Below, in pieces: positions 902-23,627 of a DNA stretch of 64,000 nt; positions within the stretch are counted from its first letter, which is position 1, and the number at the start of each line of letters is the position of its first letter. The notes below the pieces were generated by a model. That model ran no database searches. It saw only the letters and a list, made by a program, of their open reading frames with translations, and was not told the origin of the DNA. The DNA is from an uncultured Actinomycetes bacterium (lineage in GTDB: Bacteria; Actinomycetota; UBA4738; JBBDTT01), in assembly GCA_963742735.1 (NCBI GenBank), contig CAVUMN010000003.1:768001-832000 (forward strand), in the 5' to 3' direction. A program made the translations under genes and the position numbers.

Positions 902-1539
<638 letters not shown>

Positions 1540-1543
<4 letters not shown>

Positions 1544-1728
1544 AGCAGAAGACGCACCGGGGCGCGGCCAAGCGGTACCGGATCACCGGTTCCGGCAAGG
1601 TCATGCGCCGCAAGGCCACCGGCAACCACATGCTGGGAAAGAAGTCGGGGAGCCAGAAGCGCCGCATCACCGGGACCGCCGTGGTCGGTCCCGAGGCGAA
1701 GGTCATCAAGAAGCTCCTGGGGCGCTGA
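1540..1728 (+). CDS. rpmI: 50S ribosomal protein L35
   Basis: GTG overlapping infC stop; [19 protein letters not shown]. Confidence 0.95.
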
Positions 1729-1731
1729 GCG

Positions 1732-2088
1732 ATGGCCAGGATCAAGCGAAGCGTTCACGGCCGCAAGAAGCACCGCGAGGTGCTCGAGCAGGCCAAGGGG
1801 TACCGCGGCGCGCGCTCCCGCAGCTACAAGAAGGCCAAGGAGCAGCTCCTGCACTCCGGCGTCTACGCGTACCGCGACCGCCGTGACAAGAAGGGGCAGT
1901 TCCGCCGCCTGTGGATCACCCGGATCGGCGCGGCCGCCCGCCAGAACGGCATGACCTACTCCACGTTCATCTCCGGCCTCACCGCCGCCGGCGTCGAGCT
2001 GGACCGCAAGATCCTCGCCGACCTCGCGGTGAACGACCCGAAGGCCTTCGGCGACCTGGTCGAGGCCGCCCGAGGGGCACGGGCGTAG
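1732..2088 (+). CDS. rplT: 50S ribosomal protein L20
   Basis: [42 protein letters not shown]. Confidence 0.98.
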
Positions 2089-3524
2089 CCGCCTCCCGCA
2101 TCTCGAGCACCAAGAACCCCCACGTCCACGACGCCGCACGCCTGAAGAAGCGCGCGCTGCGCGAGAAGGACCGCCGGTTCCTGGTCGAGGGGCGGCAGGG
2201 GGTGGCCGAGGCGCTCGAGGCTCGCCGGGTCGAGACCCTCTTCCACGCCGAGGGCACGCACGACGACCTGGCCGAGGTGGCGTCCTCGCTCGGTGCCCGC
2301 GTGGTCGCCGCCACCGAGGACGTCCTCAAGCACCTGACCTCCACCGTCACCCCGCAGGGGATCGTGGCGGTCGCCTCCTACCTGGACGTCCCCCTCGACG
2401 CGGTCCGGGACCCGAGGCTCGTCGCGGTGCTGTGCGCGGTCCGCGACCCGGGCAACGCCGGGACGATCCTTCGCTCGGCCGACGCGGCGGGGGCGGACGC
2501 GGTGGTGTTCGCCGGGGAGTCCGTCGACGTCTACAACCCGAAGACCGTCCGCGCCTCCGCGGGCTCGGTGTTCCATCTTCCGGTGGTGCGCTCGGTCGCG
2601 GAGCCGGAGGCAGTGGAGTCCCTGCGCGGCTCGGGGCTGCAGGTCCTGGCGGCGGACGCGAGCGGCGAGACGAGCCTGGACCAGGTGGACCTGTCCCGCC
2701 CGACCGCGCTGCTCTTCGGCAACGAGGCGTGGGGCCTGCCGCCCGAGACCGCCGCGCTCGCCGACGCGACCGTGCGGATCCCCATGCGGGGCCGGGCCGA
2801 GTCGCTGAACCTGGCCGCCGCGGCGACGCTCATGCTGTTCGAGGTGTCGCGGCCCGCGCCCGCAGTCGGCGGGGACGACCTCGCCCGGTGGATCTCGGGG
2901 TCGGCCCACGACCTGCGCTCGCCGCTCACCGGGCTGACCGGGTTCACGCTGATGCTCTCCCGCCGGTGGGACCGGCTCTCGGAGGACCAGCGGCGCGAGC
3001 TCGTGGAATCGATCGGCGTGGACGCCGAGCGGGTCGGACACAACATCAAGCGGGTGATCGACGCGGCCCGCGCGGGGCTGGGAACCCTGAAGCCGGGGGA
3101 GGAGCGGATCGACGTCCGCGACCTGGCGACGAAGGCGCGGGACGCCCTCGCCGCCCGCGAGCAGACGATCTCGCTCGACCTGCCCGACGCCGAGGTCCGC
3201 GTGCTCGGCGACCCGGACCGGCTGGGGATCGCCGTGATCGCCCTGGCGGAGGCGGCGGCGTGGTGGGGCGACTCCGACGACCTCGCGACGATCCGCGTGG
3301 AAGCCGGCGAGGGCGAGGGGCGCGTCGTCGTCACCCGTCCCGGGAAGCCCGAGCCGTGGCCGTTCACCCCCGAGGGCACCGGCCGGGGCACTGGCCTGGC
3401 CCTGCTCGCCGCGGAGGGCGTCCTGCGGGTCCACGGGGGCCGGCTCGAGCACGAGATCGGCGAGGCCGGGCTCAGGTTCACCGCCACGATCCCCGCGGGC
3501 CCTGTGGCAGACTCGCCCGCATGA
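2085..3524 (+). CDS. TrmH/SpoU RNA methyltransferase fused to HisKA and a degenerate HATPase domain (start uncertain)
   Basis: [38 protein letters not shown], then H-box [15 protein letters not shown] and G2-like GTGLALL...HGG with no stop between. Confidence 0.85.
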
Positions 3525-4582
3525 CCACGGACCCCCAGGACGCCGTTCGCTCGCTCGAGGCCGAGGTGGCGCGGGCCCGCGGGGCCGCCGCCGCCGCGTC
3601 GACCCTCGAGGACCTCGAGCAGGCCCAGGTGGCGCTGCTCGGCCGCAAGGCGCCGCTGTCGGCGATCAAGCGTTCGCTCGGCGAGCTCGACGAGGCCGGG
3701 CGCCGCCTGGTCGGACAGGCCACGAACGAGGCTCGCGCCGCGATCGAGTCGGCGCTGGCGGAGCGGCGCGCCGAGCTCGAGGGGGGCGCTGCCCGGGAGC
3801 GGCTGGATGCCGAGCGCATCGACGTCACCCTCCCCGGCCGGGCGAACCGTCCCGGCTCGCTCCATCCCCTGGCGGTCATCGAGTACCGCATCGTCGAGAT
3901 CTTCGAGCGGATGGGCTACCGGGTCGTCGAGGGCCCGGAGATCGAGACCGACTGGTACAACTTCCAGGCCCTCAACATCCCGCCCGACCACCCGGCCCGG
4001 ACGGTCAAGGACACGCTGTACGTGGACGTGCCCGGCCGCGACGACCTCCTCCTGCGCACCGAGACCAGCGCGATGCAGATCCACACCATGGAGTCGCAGC
4101 CGCCGCCCGTGTACATCGTCTCGCCGGGGCGGACGTTCCGCCGCGACACCCAGGACGCGACCCACTCCCCGGTGTTCCATCAGATCGAGGGGCTGGCGGT
4201 CGACGAGGGACTTTCGTTCTCCGACATGAAGGGCACCCTCGAGGCGTTCGCGCAGGGCATGTTCGGCCCGGACCAGCGGGTGCGCCTGACGGCGTCATAC
4301 TTCCCGTTCGTCGAGCCCGGCGCCCAGGTCGAGGTGTCCTGCTTCATCTGCGGCGGCGTCGGCTGCCGGACGTGCGGCAACGGCTGGATCGAGATCATGG
4401 GGTGCGGGATGGTCCACCCCAACGTCCTGGAGAACGTCGGCTACGACTCCGAGCGATATACGGGGTTCGCGTTCGGGATGGGGATCGAGCGGGTGGCGAT
4501 GCTCGTGTACGGCCTGCCCGACATCCGGCTGCTGTTCGAGAGCGACGTGCGGTTCCTGTCCCAGTTCCAGGCGGTCGGATGA
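3521..4582 (+). CDS. pheS: Phenylalanyl-tRNA synthetase alpha subunit
   Basis: GSLHPL, NFQALNIPPDHPAR, FRRD, FHQIEG, YFPFVEP, GFAFGMGIER. Confidence 0.98.
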   Translation: MTTDPQDAVRSLEAEVARARGAAAAASTLEDLEQAQVALLGRKAPLSAIKRSLGELDEAGRRLVGQATNEARAAIESALAERRAELEGGAARERLDAERIDVTLPGRANRPGSLHPLAVIEYRIVEIFERMGYRVVEGPEIETDWYNFQALNIPPDHPARTVKDTLYVDVPGRDDLLLRTETSAMQIHTMESQPPPVYIVSPGRTFRRDTQDATHSPVFHQIEGLAVDEGLSFSDMKGTLEAFAQGMFGPDQRVRLTASYFPFVEPGAQVEVSCFICGGVGCRTCGNGWIEIMGCGMVHPNVLENVGYDSERYTGFAFGMGIERVAMLVYGLPDIRLLFESDVRFLSQFQAVG

Positions 4583-17730: not shown

Positions 17731-19264
<1,534 letters not shown>

Positions 19265-20076
19265 AGCCATTGGCAAAACCTGGACCCGCTCGAGGAGAGT
19301 TCGGTACTCCTCCCGCGGACCGTCCGGGGGTTCCAGGTCAATCACTGGTTATTCCGGTCGCGTTCAGCGTGCCGAGAGCACTTAGTACGCCCAGCAATGG
19401 GAGTGGAACGGAGCTCGAGGTTCGCCGGCCGTGTCCGGGGCACACTGTTTGGTCCTGAGGGTGCGAGCCCTCGGGCGGGAGAAGCTGTCCCGTCCGTGAC
19501 CTTGAGAACCGCATAGCGAGCGCGAGCATCTACAGTCAAGTTAGTAAGGGCTTACGGTGGATGCCTTGGCGCCAGGAGCCGATGAAGGACGCGTGAGGCT
19601 GCGAAAAGCCCCGGGGAGCCGCCAACAAGGCTGGGATCCGGGGGTGTCCGAATGGGGAAACCCGGCCGGGGTCATGCCCGGTCACCCAGGTCTGAATACA
19701 TAGGGCCTGTGGAGGGAACCGCGTGAACTGAAACATCTCAGTAACGCGAGGAAGAGAAAGCAACCGCGATTCCCCAAGTAGCGGCGAGCGAACGGGGATG
19801 AGCCTAAACCGGTGCGGCGTGATACCCCTGCGGGGTTGCCGTGCCGGGGTCGTGGGACCCACATGCGAGTGCGCAGGAGCTCGCGGGGAGTTACAAAGTT
19901 AGCGGATAGTCGAAAGCCATGGAAAGGGCTGCCACAGCGGGTAAGAGCCCCGTAGGTGAAATCTGACTGACCTCCCTCGTGGTGTTCCCGAGTAACACGG
20001 GACCCGAGAAATCCCGTGTGAATCTGGGGGGACCACCCCCTAAGGCTAAACACTCCCTGGCGACCGATAGTGAACC

Positions 20077-20107
<31 letters not shown>

Positions 20108-20606
20108 GGGAGGGGAGTGAAACAGTACCTGAAACCGTGAGCCTACAAGCTGTCGGAGCTCGTCGTTGGGTAACCAGCGGCGGGTGACGGCGTGCCTTTT
20201 GAAGAATGAGCCGGCGAGTTAGCCGTATGTGGCGAGGTTAAGTCTCTGGACGAAGCCGTAGCGAAAGCGAGTCTGAAATGGGCGTCCAGTCGCATGCGCT
20301 AGACCCGAAGCCGAGTGATCTATCCATGGGCAGGTTGAAGCGGAGGTAAGACTCCGTGGAGGACCGAACCCACCAGGGTTGAAAACCTGGGGGATGACCT
20401 GTGGATAGGGGTGAAAGGCCAATCAAACTCGGTGATAGCTGGTTCTCCCCGAAATGCCTTTAGGGGCAGCCTCGGGCGTTCAGTATCGGAGGTAGAGCAC
20501 TGAACGGGTTAGGGGGCCTACAAGCTTACCGACCCCGATCAAACTCCGAATGCCGATACTCCAGAGCCCGGGAGTGAGGGTGCGGGGGATAAGCTCCGTA
20601 CCCGAG

Positions 20607-20639
<33 letters not shown>

Positions 20640-20679
20640 CAAGTTCGTGCTAAGTGGGAAAGGATGTGGGATTGCCCAG

Positions 20680-20714
<35 letters not shown>

Positions 20715-21637
20715 GAAAGAGTGCGTAACAGCTCACTGGTCAAGTGGTCCCGCGCCGACAATGTAACGGGGCTAAAGCACGACACCGAAGCTGCGGCATT
20801 CCTCGTATGGCTCGGCCTCGTTGGGCAACCTTCGAGGTCCAGGCCGAGGGATGGGTAGGGGAGCGTTCTCACGCGAGAGAAGCGGCGGGGTGACCCAGCC
20901 GTGGATGCGTGAGAAGTGCGAATGCCGGCATGAGTAGCGAGAGAGGGGGGAGGAGCCCCTCCGCCGATTGTCCAAGGGTTCCTGGGGAAGGTTCATCCGC
21001 CCAGGGTTAGTCGGGCCCTAAGCCGAGGCCGACAGGCGTAGGCGATGGAAGACAGGTTGATATTCCTGTACCAGCTCATTCGCGCCAAGGCCGAATCCAG
21101 GTTGCTAAGGGAACCCCCTTCGGGGGGCTACCGACCCACCTGGTACTAGGCCAGCGAAGGGGGGACGCAGGAGGGTAGGTGGACCCAGGCGATGGTTGTC
21201 CTGGGGTAAGCGTGTAGGGGGGTCCCCCAGGCAAATCCGGGGGGCCATCAACTCCGAGGCGTGATACCGAGCCGCATCAGGCGAAGCCACTGATCCCATG
21301 CTGCCGAGAAAAGCCTCTAGCGAGCGAGTGAGCTGCCCGTACCCCAAACCGACACAGGTGGACAGGTAGAGAATACCGAGGCGATCGAGATAACCCTGGT
21401 TAAGGAACTCGGCAAGTTGCCCCCGTAACTTCGGGAGAAGGGGGGCTTCGGTAGGGTGAGATCCTTCGCGGATCGAGCCCGATGAAGCCGCAGAAACCAG
21501 GCCCAAGCGACTGTTTACTAAAAACACAGGTCCGTGCGAAGTCGCAAGACGCTGTATACGGACTGACGCCTGCCCGGTGCTGGAACGTTACGGGGATGGG
21601 TTAGCTCTTCGGAGCGAAGCTCTGAACCTAAGCGCCA

Positions 21638-21719
<82 letters not shown>

Positions 21720-22170
21720 CGACTTGGGCACTGTCTCAACCGGGGACTCGGCGAAATTGCAATACGAGTAAAGATGCTCGTTACCCGCGGAAGGACGGAA
21801 AGACCCCGGAACCTTTACTGCAGCTTGGTGTTGGGTTCTGGTATGCGCTGCGTAGGATAGGCGGGAGGCTTTGAAGCTCGGACTCTGGTTCGGGTGGAGC
21901 CAACCTTGAAATACCGCTCTGCGTGTACTGGGACTCTAACCCGGGTCCATGATCTGGATCGGGGACAGCGCCAGGTGGGCAGTTTAACTGGGGCGGTTGC
22001 CTCCTAAAAGGTAACGGAGGCGCCCAAAGGTACCCTCAGTCTGGTCGGCCATCAGACGCCGAGTGCAAGGGCACAAGGGTGCTTGACTGCGAGATCGACG
22101 GATCGAGCAGGTGCGAAAGCAGGGCCTAGTGATCCGACGGTGGCATGTGGAAGCGCCGTCGCTCAACGGC

Positions 22171-22202
<32 letters not shown>

Positions 22203-22240
22203 TTCCCAAGAGTCCATATCGACGGAACGGTTTGGCACCT

Positions 22241-23047
22241 CAACATCTGGGGTGAGGCGGGAGAAATCCCGTTCCAAGTATCGGCTTATAACGGCGAACC
22301 CCTAGCTGTCAGAGGCTCTCTCTACAGTGGGCAACGCCGTGGGAAGTCTGTCGGGAGTGCAGCGAGAGATCGTCATCGGGAGCTTGCTCGGCGATGGCGG
22401 GATGCGCTGCAAGACCAACGCGCTTCTCGAGATCAATCATTCCTTCCGCCAGCGAAGCTACGTCGACTGGAAGTACAGCCGGCTGGCCGAGCTGGTAGCC
22501 ACGCCACCCAAGGTGCGACGTGGGAACGGCGGCAGGATCGCGTATCGATTCACGACGCGAAACCTGCCGGCGCTGACTCCCTACTTCGAGCTCTTCTACG
22601 GAGAAGGAAGCAAGCGCGTTCCATTCGTGGAACTCGCCCCGCTCACCCTTGCGGTGTGGTTCATGGACGATGGTTCGAGATCGAGAAACGCGGTGTATCT
22701 GAACACTCAACAGTTCGACGAGGCGAGTCAGATCCGTCTCCTCGAGCTTCTGCGGGAACAGTGGGGGATCGAAGGATCGCTCAATCGGGACAAGACCTAT
22801 CACCGGATTCGCATCTCGGTGACGGGGACGGCCCGGCTGGGCGAGATCGTCGGCCCGCATCTGCTTCCCGAGCTCAGATACAAGCTCCCGCAAGTGACCC
22901 CGTAACGACTGAGGCCGCGGCCTCGGTGGCGGACCACTGCCTGGTACTCCCAGGCAAATCTACGGCCGCCACAACACGCCGACCCCTCGCCTTTGGTCAG
23001 GCAGGGTGAAGACATAGTCTGCGCCACTGGTAACAGTGGATCCCGTG
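22241..23047 (+). mobile_element. Group I intron at 23S position L2500 (probably subgroup IA)
   Basis: Splits GGCACCT^CGATGTCGG; exon U and terminal G; IGS GGGGTG 22249-22254; P3, P4, P7, P8, P9 pairings; S element AAGACATAGTC 23009-23019. Confidence 0.95.
22327..22905 (+). CDS. Two-motif LAGLIDADG homing endonuclease (I-SceI-like, LAGLIDADG_2)
   Basis: IVIGSLLGDG and LAVWFMDDG motifs; lies inside the intron. Confidence 0.92.
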   Translation: MGNAVGSLSGVQREIVIGSLLGDGGMRCKTNALLEINHSFRQRSYVDWKYSRLAELVATPPKVRRGNGGRIAYRFTTRNLPALTPYFELFYGEGSKRVPFVELAPLTLAVWFMDDGSRSRNAVYLNTQQFDEASQIRLLELLREQWGIEGSLNRDKTYHRIRISVTGTARLGEIVGPHLLPELRYKLPQVTP

Positions 23048-23063
23048 CGATGTCGGCTCGTCG

Positions 23064-23114
<51 letters not shown>

Positions 23115-23133
23115 CGGTACGCGAGCTGGGTTT

Positions 23134-23164
<31 letters not shown>

Positions 23165-23283
23165 TCCGTGGGCGTAGGAAACTTGAGGGGAGCTGTCCCT
23201 AGTACGAGAGGACCGGGACGGACGCACCTCTGGTGTGCCAGTTGTCGCGCCAGCGGCACGGCTGGTTAGCCACGTGCGGAAGA

Positions 23284-23314
<31 letters not shown>

Positions 23315-23509
23315 TTGCCCCGAGATGAGGTTTCCCATCCCTTTGTGGAGTAAGGCCCCTCGCAGACTACGAGGTTGATAGGCCGGAGGTGTACGCACGG
23401 CAACGTGTTCAGCCGACCGGTACTAATAGGCCGAGGACTTGACTTTGCTCGCGCTCGCTATGCGGTTCATCCAAGGTAACCGCTCGCACACCTCGCAAGA
23501 TCCGAGGTT

Positions 23510-23627
23510 TCTCGGTGACCATAGCGGAGGGGTCACACCCGGTCCCATCCCGAACCCGGAAGTTAAGCCCTCCTGCGCCGATGGTACTGCCCTGGAGACG
23601 GGGTGGGAGAGTAGGTCGTCGCCGGGA
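23510..23627 (+). rRNA. rrf: 5S rRNA
   Basis: CCCATCCCGAACCCGGAAGTTAAG, GATGGTACTG, GAGAGTAGGTCGTCGCCG; terminal helix pairs. Confidence 0.97.

Follow-up and report, generated by a model that had tools for sequence, protein, structure and literature searches.

The closest described systems to the element considered here, an 807-nucleotide (nt) group I intron in the 23S ribosomal RNA (rRNA) gene of a 64,000-nt stretch of contig CAVUMN010000003.1 (positions 768,001 to 832,000; this whole stretch is called the window, and coordinates without a locus prefix are its own), are the 23S introns of the Candidate Phyla Radiation (CPR, Patescibacteria). In the available passages of Tsurumaki et al. (2024, PMC11270868) these are group I introns with LAGLIDADG genes, which cluster around the peptidyl transferase centre at sites unreported in other bacteria. 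The same passages name the sites 1917, 1931, 1952, 2593, 2604 and 2657, give the introns at 23IS9-11, 13 and 14 as previously unreported in bacteria, and describe bacterial rRNA introns as confined to a few species plus CPR. As far as those passages go, the CPR introns are the same kind of element as the window intron and lie, as it does, around the peptidyl transferase centre. Within our own set of loci, metagenome-assembled genomes (MAGs) labelled CPR encode homologous endonucleases with 49-56% identity at the same GGCACCT/CGATGTCGG site. The hosts are unlike, however, since that of the window is a high-GC, soil-type, non-CPR bacterium whose 23S gene is closest to those of Actinomycetota MAGs. 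The window intron also ends in G, whereas 21 of the 64 introns of the family, mostly CPR-labelled, have no terminal G.

In the chloroplast rrl gene of Floydiella terrestris site 2500 is occupied by Ft.rrl.6, which the available text of PMC2997540 gives as a 381-bp intron of subgroup IB with no open reading frame (ORF). Its site is identical to that of the window intron in E. coli numbering; compared by site and architecture alone, the two differ in that Ft.rrl.6 is IB and ORF-less whereas the window intron is IA-like (P7.1/P7.2) and carries an endonuclease. The omega intron of yeast mitochondrial 21S rRNA, which encodes I-SceI, shares with the window intron the endonuclease family (PF03161) and a location in domain V of large-subunit rRNA. 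Omega is inserted at L2449. Its site and its mitochondrial host set it apart from the bacterial window intron, and the two proteins resemble each other only distantly (42 bits). The td intron of phage T4 belongs to subgroup IA2 and resembles the window intron in having P7.1/P7.2 and an endonuclease ORF looped out of P6; it differs in its phage host, its protein-coding host gene and its GIY-YIG endonuclease. The 23S introns of Thermotoga, Coxiella, Simkania and cyanobacteria are of the self-splicing type, lie in domains IV and V and in several cases carry LAGLIDADG genes, according to the available parts of PMC11270868 and PMC3984707. Their sites are others, namely 1917, 1931, 1951/1952 and 2593 (PMC11270868, as far as available, and a preliminary description of the window), and neither site 2500 nor Actinomycetota comes up in those parts of the two papers. 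Within the library searched, we found no 23S group I intron described for Actinomycetota and none at site 2500 in non-CPR bacteria; one of the sites 23IS9-11 of PMC11270868 may be 2500 in CPR.

From the analysis presented below we conclude that the only 23S gene found in the genome very probably carries a mobile group I intron, intact and IA-like in architecture, which interrupts its peptidyl-transferase-centre region between U2500 and C2501. What we observed is its position, a fold with covariation, the family of its ORF, purifying selection on that ORF and a patchy distribution. The intron joins a known kind of element, from a large, largely undescribed family, and is not a singular oddity.

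Insertion site and fold of the intron

The 23S rRNA gene that hosts the intron lies at 19534..23446 on the plus strand (RF02541, 2680.6 bits, model 1-2925), the strand of all intron features given here. Its universally conserved run GGCACCT/CGATGTCGG is interrupted by the 807-nt insert at 22241..23047, which in the letters of the window follows ...GGCACCT, ends in G (omega-G, 23047) and is succeeded by CGATGTCGG. In the Rfam match the two exon halves adjoin at model positions 2526/2527. An E. coli rrl copy whose 5' end is canonical has this motif, unbroken, from position 2494 onwards, which makes the T in front of the insert U2500. Global alignment of the exon-only gene, from which the intron had been removed, with the E. 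coli copy, from which a tandem duplicate had been removed, placed window position 22240 at E. coli 2500 and 23048 at 2501. The preliminary description had put an 807-nt insert, ending in G, at site L2500 after U2500, and its coordinates proved correct by Rfam, by E. coli numbering and by global alignment.

Two observations concern the E. coli references themselves. A 2911-bp circular E. coli record (H1) was only 74% identical to E. coli rrl and was rejected for numbering. The rrl copy of the E. coli ST2747 chromosome (L086, locus 943-3997) is annotated as a 23S gene of 3055 nt in which positions 2372-2525 are duplicated in tandem (153 nt, 98.7% identity), with the result that the peptidyl-transferase motif occurs twice; either a genuine variant or a mistake in assembly could account for this.

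The fold was examined in an alignment of the window intron with 34 homologues, chosen from 68 delimited introns as those that start with C, end with G and measure 740-840 nt. Across these 35 introns standard pairs fill 87.3% of 2664 cells of the named structure; after sliding of the 3' partners by 1-3 columns the share is 36.5-47.4%. Both partners have changed in 52 of the 83 pairs, and in 500 shuffles not one of five pairing measures was ever attained. The slid-partner control corrects for relatedness and the shuffle control does not. The fold is far beyond chance.

At the 5' splice site, P1 pairs exon CACCT plus intron C (22236-41) with the guide GGGGTG (22249-54) and includes a U.G wobble. 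All six of its pairs, the U.G among them, are invariant and paired in 35/35 sequences (100% of cells, 0/6 compensatory). Complementarity also defines P10, in which ACATC (22243-47) faces GATGT of the 3' exon (23049-53); 77-82% of its cells are paired across the family, and only the intron side varies. P2 is a hairpin with a GAAA loop (22255-62/22267-74; 8/8 pairs compensatory, 93.2% paired). The core contains P3 (TCGGC 22281-85/GCCGA 22978-82; 3/5 compensatory, 98.3% paired), which forms a pseudoknot with P7, and P4 (ACGGCG/CGCCGT, 22291-96/22335-40; 1/6 compensatory, 99.5% paired), which encloses P5 (22300-02/22329-31; 2/3 compensatory, 99% paired) and a variable P5a/b extension. Because its length differs between introns, no more than 46% of the cells of this extension are paired in the MAFFT alignment. 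P6 pairs GGGAAGTC (22341-48) with GACCCC (22896-22901; 2/6 compensatory, 100% paired), and its loop is the ORF. P7 joins GACT (22907-10) to AGTC (23016-19), with all four pairs invariant (0/4 compensatory, 100% paired). Its 5' strand lies within the classical R element AACGACU and its 3' strand within the S-like GAAGACATAGTC; the intron stretches AACGACU and GAAGA(C/U)AUAGUC fit the classical R and S elements. P8 (22984-91/23000-06; 6/7 compensatory, 96.3% paired) is followed by the P9 hairpin CCACTG-GTAA-CAGTGG (23024-29/23034-39; 5/6 compensatory, 87.6% paired), with its GTAA loop, and then by 8 nt up to omega-G.

Two further hairpins occupy 22911-22972, between P7 and the 3' strand of P3. 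These are P7.1 (22911-15/22920-24; 4 compensatory pairs, 69% paired) and P7.2 (22926-32/22966-72; 7/7 compensatory, 92.7% paired), the latter with a length-variable inner stem (22938-44/22950-56; 49% paired). Extra hairpins P7.1/P7.2 in this place are said to define subgroup IA after Michel and Westhof in 1990, and this hallmark is present in the window intron. Every helix listed in the preliminary description was located at or near the coordinates given there, and the fold, with its covariation on 35 homologues, together with P7.1/P7.2 supports its assignment to the group I introns at L2500 with IA-like architecture.

The 16S (17731-19258) and 5S (23511-23627) rRNA genes of the same rrn operon are also in the window. 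In the host assembly (5 contigs, 3.08 Mb, completeness 88.9%) the intron and its 5' exon flank each have a single match. The preliminary description held that this rRNA copy needs exact splicing, and the single match of the 5' flank upholds the point. GC content is 70.5% in the window, 61.1% in the intron and 59.7% in the rRNA exons. The nearest 23S exons were those of an Actinomycetota-labelled MAG (L016; 83.5% identity over 2273 nt), and the similarity to Acidobacteriota or CPR loci was far lower, which suggests that the host is probably actinobacterial. Compared with E. coli, the window 23S gene has some 78 extra nt after ~274-292 (19810-19905) and some 72 extra nt after ~1408-1417 (21076-21160); the latter segment falls in the region where high-GC Gram-positives are known to carry an insertion.

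The endonuclease gene in P6 and the distribution of related introns

Most of the insert is filled by an ORF at 22327..22905 (192 codons from the first GTG) that forms the P6 loop and encodes a LAGLIDADG_2 homing endonuclease. Its last codons make the 3' strand of P6 and its stop codon TAA (22903-05) lies in J6/7. The product matched PF03161 with E 4.3e-36 and 124.8 bits (cut-off 25) over profile positions 1-166 of 168. The best match of solved structure was I-SceI, a distant one (E 7e-10, 42 bits), and the motifs LLGDGG and FMDDGS, including their aspartates, align with both LAGLIDADG motifs of I-SceI. The start codon is a candidate placement at one of several in-frame GTGs; that at 22339 lies inside an invariant core stretch in 35/35 introns. 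Expression of the endonuclease is only predicted. The preliminary description gave a correct account of the fold within the insert but did not mention this ORF.

The reading frame is open for 184-208 codons from the conserved GTG in 33 of the 35 introns. In the remaining loci, L029 and L072, it ends after 47 and 51 codons while the rest of the intron is conserved; these endonuclease genes are decaying. The ratio of nonsynonymous to synonymous substitution rates (dN/dS) between the window gene and its 15 nearest relatives was 0.15-0.29. For the family the median was 0.19, taken from those 168 pairs, out of 528, whose dS was below 2.5. The endonuclease ORF is under purifying selection. The intact gene, this selection and the patchy distribution described below agree with the preliminary description of the intron as intact and possibly mobile.

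Relatives of the endonuclease were found as 496 coding stretches in a collection of one genome per prokaryote species, and the best 80 of the 496 were analysed. The coding region lies between an exact GGCACCT and an exact CGATGTCGG, less than 1500 nt apart, in 67 of these best 80 loci; the other 13 comprise four at a contig end, two free-standing genes and seven with no exact motif on one side. Labels of the Actinomycetota type are carried by 14 of the best 80 (L006, L007 and L009-L020, 64-76% identity), several of them on contigs of 0.1-1.2 Mb (0.27-1.24 Mb for L007, L006, L017 and L019). Acidobacteriota, Chloroflexota, Omnitrophota, Elusimicrobia, Proteobacteria, Vulcanimicrobiota, Planctomycetota, Methylomirabilis and many CPR groups account for further labels among the best 80, with the reservation that labels on short contigs may be binning errors. 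A protein collection yielded 2303 clusters that match the endonuclease at E <= 1e-10, the best with 72-80% identity, and among the 120 cluster matches listed nearly all come from metagenome contigs of about 1 kb.

The same site also holds introns without an ORF, at L041:2201-2457 (257 nt) and L077:1953-2212 (260 nt), both from Chloroflexota-labelled MAGs. In these homologues P6 is closed by a short hairpin. Just downstream of the rRNA genes both loci have a free-standing LAGLIDADG gene with 59-62% identity (L041:2908-3624 and L077:2965-3444). The gene in L041 follows the end of 23S at 2856; that in L077 follows the 5S gene (2776-2892) and has no counterpart of the C-terminal ~30 residues. The free-standing endonuclease may have left its intron and act in trans.

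The last base was G in 43 of 64 delimited L2500 introns and A in 21, typically as ...GTA; by first and last base they divide into C..G 34, T..A 14, T..G 9 and C..A 7. The A-ending introns are mostly CPR-labelled (loci L042-L082), and 14 of the 21 also start with T instead of C. A precedent for the loss of omega-G is reportedly found in a Coxiella paper, to judge by its title. In the 3.5-kb contig L008 an intron at 2067-2874 is followed 185 nt later (3059) by an uninterrupted GGCACCT-CGATGTCGG site; here the assembly has probably tangled alleles with and without the intron that were present in one sample.

We consider it about evenly balanced whether these loci represent a very large, essentially undescribed and horizontally mobile family of IA-type introns at position 2500, which pervades CPR and also, outside CPR, uncultured bacteria of soil and fresh water (Actinomycetota, Acidobacteriota, Chloroflexota, Omnitrophota and others). 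The same even confidence applies to the proposal that the L2500 family displays the whole homing cycle, from intact and decayed endonuclease genes to ORF-less ribozymes and free-standing genes.

The 5' exon region was found in 30 of 60 relatives from the order of the host, and the L2500 site was uninterrupted in all 29 loci examined. Other classical 23S intron sites (~1912-1923, ~1953, ~2593 and ~2603; loci L088-L116) hold insertions of 246-1045 nt in eight of these 29 relatives, and some genes carry two. Three of the eight are genomes flagged unpublished; the same-order counts include G031, G049, G027, G006 and G030, which bear this flag, and without them the site is empty in 25/25 and other insertions occur in 5/25. 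Of the five carriers whose genomes are published, L097 alone attains the gathering score of RF00028 (76.2 bits at L097:981-1187). The preliminary description had implied that rRNA group I introns are rare in the phylum. This did not hold, given the 14 Actinomycetota-labelled loci among the best 80 and the large 23S insertions in 8/29 same-order relatives; by its own rule many actinobacterial relatives at L2500 lower only the novelty of the intron.

Of 400 genomes sampled evenly across the phylum (G222, G172, G198 and G077 among them flagged unpublished), 38 contain a LAGLIDADG_2-like match at E <= 1e-5. Just two of these matches are close homologues of the endonuclease, with 73% and 70% identity (G222 and G172); many others are parts of open frames that run for 570-1550 codons, and probably represent inteins. 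A comparison of the intron DNA with the 60 relatives returned three short, weak matches (E 3e-4 to 7e-4), which were discarded. In one same-order relative group II intron domains, RF02001 (118.7 bits) and RF01998 (63.9 bits), occur just downstream of 5S at L098:2632-2941.

Since the site is empty in 29/29 same-order loci and the family is spread across phyla, the host lineage most likely acquired the intron horizontally; the pattern is in keeping with repeated acquisition of this kind. We also count for mobility the GC content of the intron, 61% within a 70.5% GC window.

Alternative explanations

Several results weigh against the interpretation of the insert as an intact, splicing group I intron. 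The P5a/b, P7.1 and inner P7.2 helices are only 46-69% paired, the alignment being unreliable at length-variable helices. By eye, no convincing ribosome-binding site precedes the in-frame GTGs at 22327, 22339 and 22357. A single rrn operon was seen, and at 88.9% completeness a second, intron-less rrn copy is possible. No contig from four public sequencing runs (X1-X4) bridges either intron junction, and no ligated-exon RNA was recovered from them. The highest share of sampled window words in any public run was 0.25, and the four runs gave only short contigs on conserved exon sequence plus an identical 232-nt DNA piece within the ORF in X4 (depth 3.4) and a piece near 22849-22917 in X1. Joints from 22238 to 23048/49 in X3 have other letters and sides of 26-27 nt and were attributed to other organisms. 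Lastly, RF00028 gave no match at E up to 10 on the window intron or elsewhere in the genome, and its match on the ORF-less L077 homologue (L077:1947-2204) is below the Rfam gathering score, at 32.7 against 50 bits.

The preliminary description had proposed a scan with RF00028 and had counted the lack of a group I model hit against itself. On the window copy there is indeed no hit, but on the 260-nt L077 homologue from the same site RF00028 spans the full model, 1-253, with E 6.4e-7. The P1-P9 assignments of Infernal on L077 agree with those we made for the window intron, and P7.1/P7.2 appear there as an insertion between the R element and the 3' strand of P3. The model misses the window copy because it has no positions for the ~560-nt P6 ORF or for P7.1/P7.2. 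Since the ORF-less homologue matches, we do not take the silence of RF00028 on the window as the lack of a group I intron.

The same results bear on the proposal that the insert is a decayed group I relic which can no longer ligate its exons, and which is either cut by RNase into a fragmented 23S or kept in the mature rRNA. The missing RF00028 match on the window copy and the failure to recover spliced RNA from the four runs would fit such a relic, and an unspliced 23S intron is on record by title only, Everett and colleagues having reportedly described in 1999 an 'unspliced group I intron in 23S rRNA' of Simkania. We nevertheless regard a relic as very improbable. None of P1, P3-P9, P10, the U.G pair or omega-G is missing, and each is either conserved or covarying. 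The endonuclease ORF is intact, and the site is in the peptidyl-transferase-centre region, where the ribosome is unlikely to tolerate either a break in the chain or an insert of 807 nt. That an assembly or binning artefact joined a foreign intron to the gene through its universally conserved flanks seems to us scarcely credible. The flanks are nearly universal and assemblers do tangle there, as in L008, and the public runs supplied no contig across a junction. On the other side, the locus is ~790 kb into its contig in a 5-contig assembly, and the cluster of the window's own protein gives the longest contig as 962,622 bases. The same arrangement recurs in 67 of the best 80 independent loci, several on contigs of 0.27-1.24 Mb, and the genome has no other 23S copy to which the exons could belong.

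It is also conceivable, if unlikely, that the intron is real but does not self-splice in cells, needing either its own LAGLIDADG protein as a maturase or host RNA chaperones. Purifying selection on the ORF despite a single rrn copy, which leaves little scope for intragenomic homing, speaks for this, as does the maturase-like activity that the available text of PMC3984707 ascribes to the protein of the Thermotoga neapolitana 23S intron. ORF-less copies persist at the same site in L041 and L077, however, so the ribozyme can do without a cis-encoded protein, although both genomes keep a free-standing homologue nearby. The core helices of the window intron are, moreover, all intact.

Proposed splicing and homing, and their significance

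The splicing steps that we infer for this intron are taken from established group I intron chemistry. In the rrn transcript the intron would fold into a core made of the P3-P7 pseudoknot and the P4-P6 stack. An external guanosine would attack the phosphate after U2500, held in P1 as a U.G pair against the guide GGGGUG. P10 would then align the 3' exon, the G site in P7 would take up omega-G 23047, and ligation of the exons would restore GGCACCU-CGAUGUCGG. With a single rrn operon, splicing must be exact and efficient for ribosomes to be produced. The gene in the P6 loop is predicted to give an endonuclease of the I-SceI family that is monomeric and has two LAGLIDADG motifs. This enzyme would be specific for intron-less 23S rDNA, cutting it across the 2500 junction, and repair would copy the intron in. 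Purifying selection on the gene, and its position at this one site in 67 of the best 80 loci, lend such specificity indirect support. Such homing would follow the transfer of DNA between cells. The endonuclease may in addition aid folding as a maturase.

The main value of the window intron is as an entry point to a poorly described family. The same site is filled in 67 of the best 80 loci, from many phyla, as against the 'few species plus CPR' of the literature. If the view of a very large L2500 family is right, rRNA introns in ordinary bacteria would be far commoner than the literature's 'a few species', and about one quarter of the assembled 23S genes in this actinobacterial order would have one or more large insertions at classical intron sites. 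23S introns like those at L2500 disrupt rRNA-based polymerase chain reaction surveys and metagenome assembly. The family supplies compact natural ribozymes of 257-260 nt as test systems, and endonucleases of the I-SceI family that are expected to target universally conserved rDNA. In L041 and L077 the intron may cooperate with an endonuclease whose gene stands free of it. For the host of the window, with its single-copy 23S gene split at U2500, a ribozyme reaction would be essential to the life of a free-living, high-GC bacterium.

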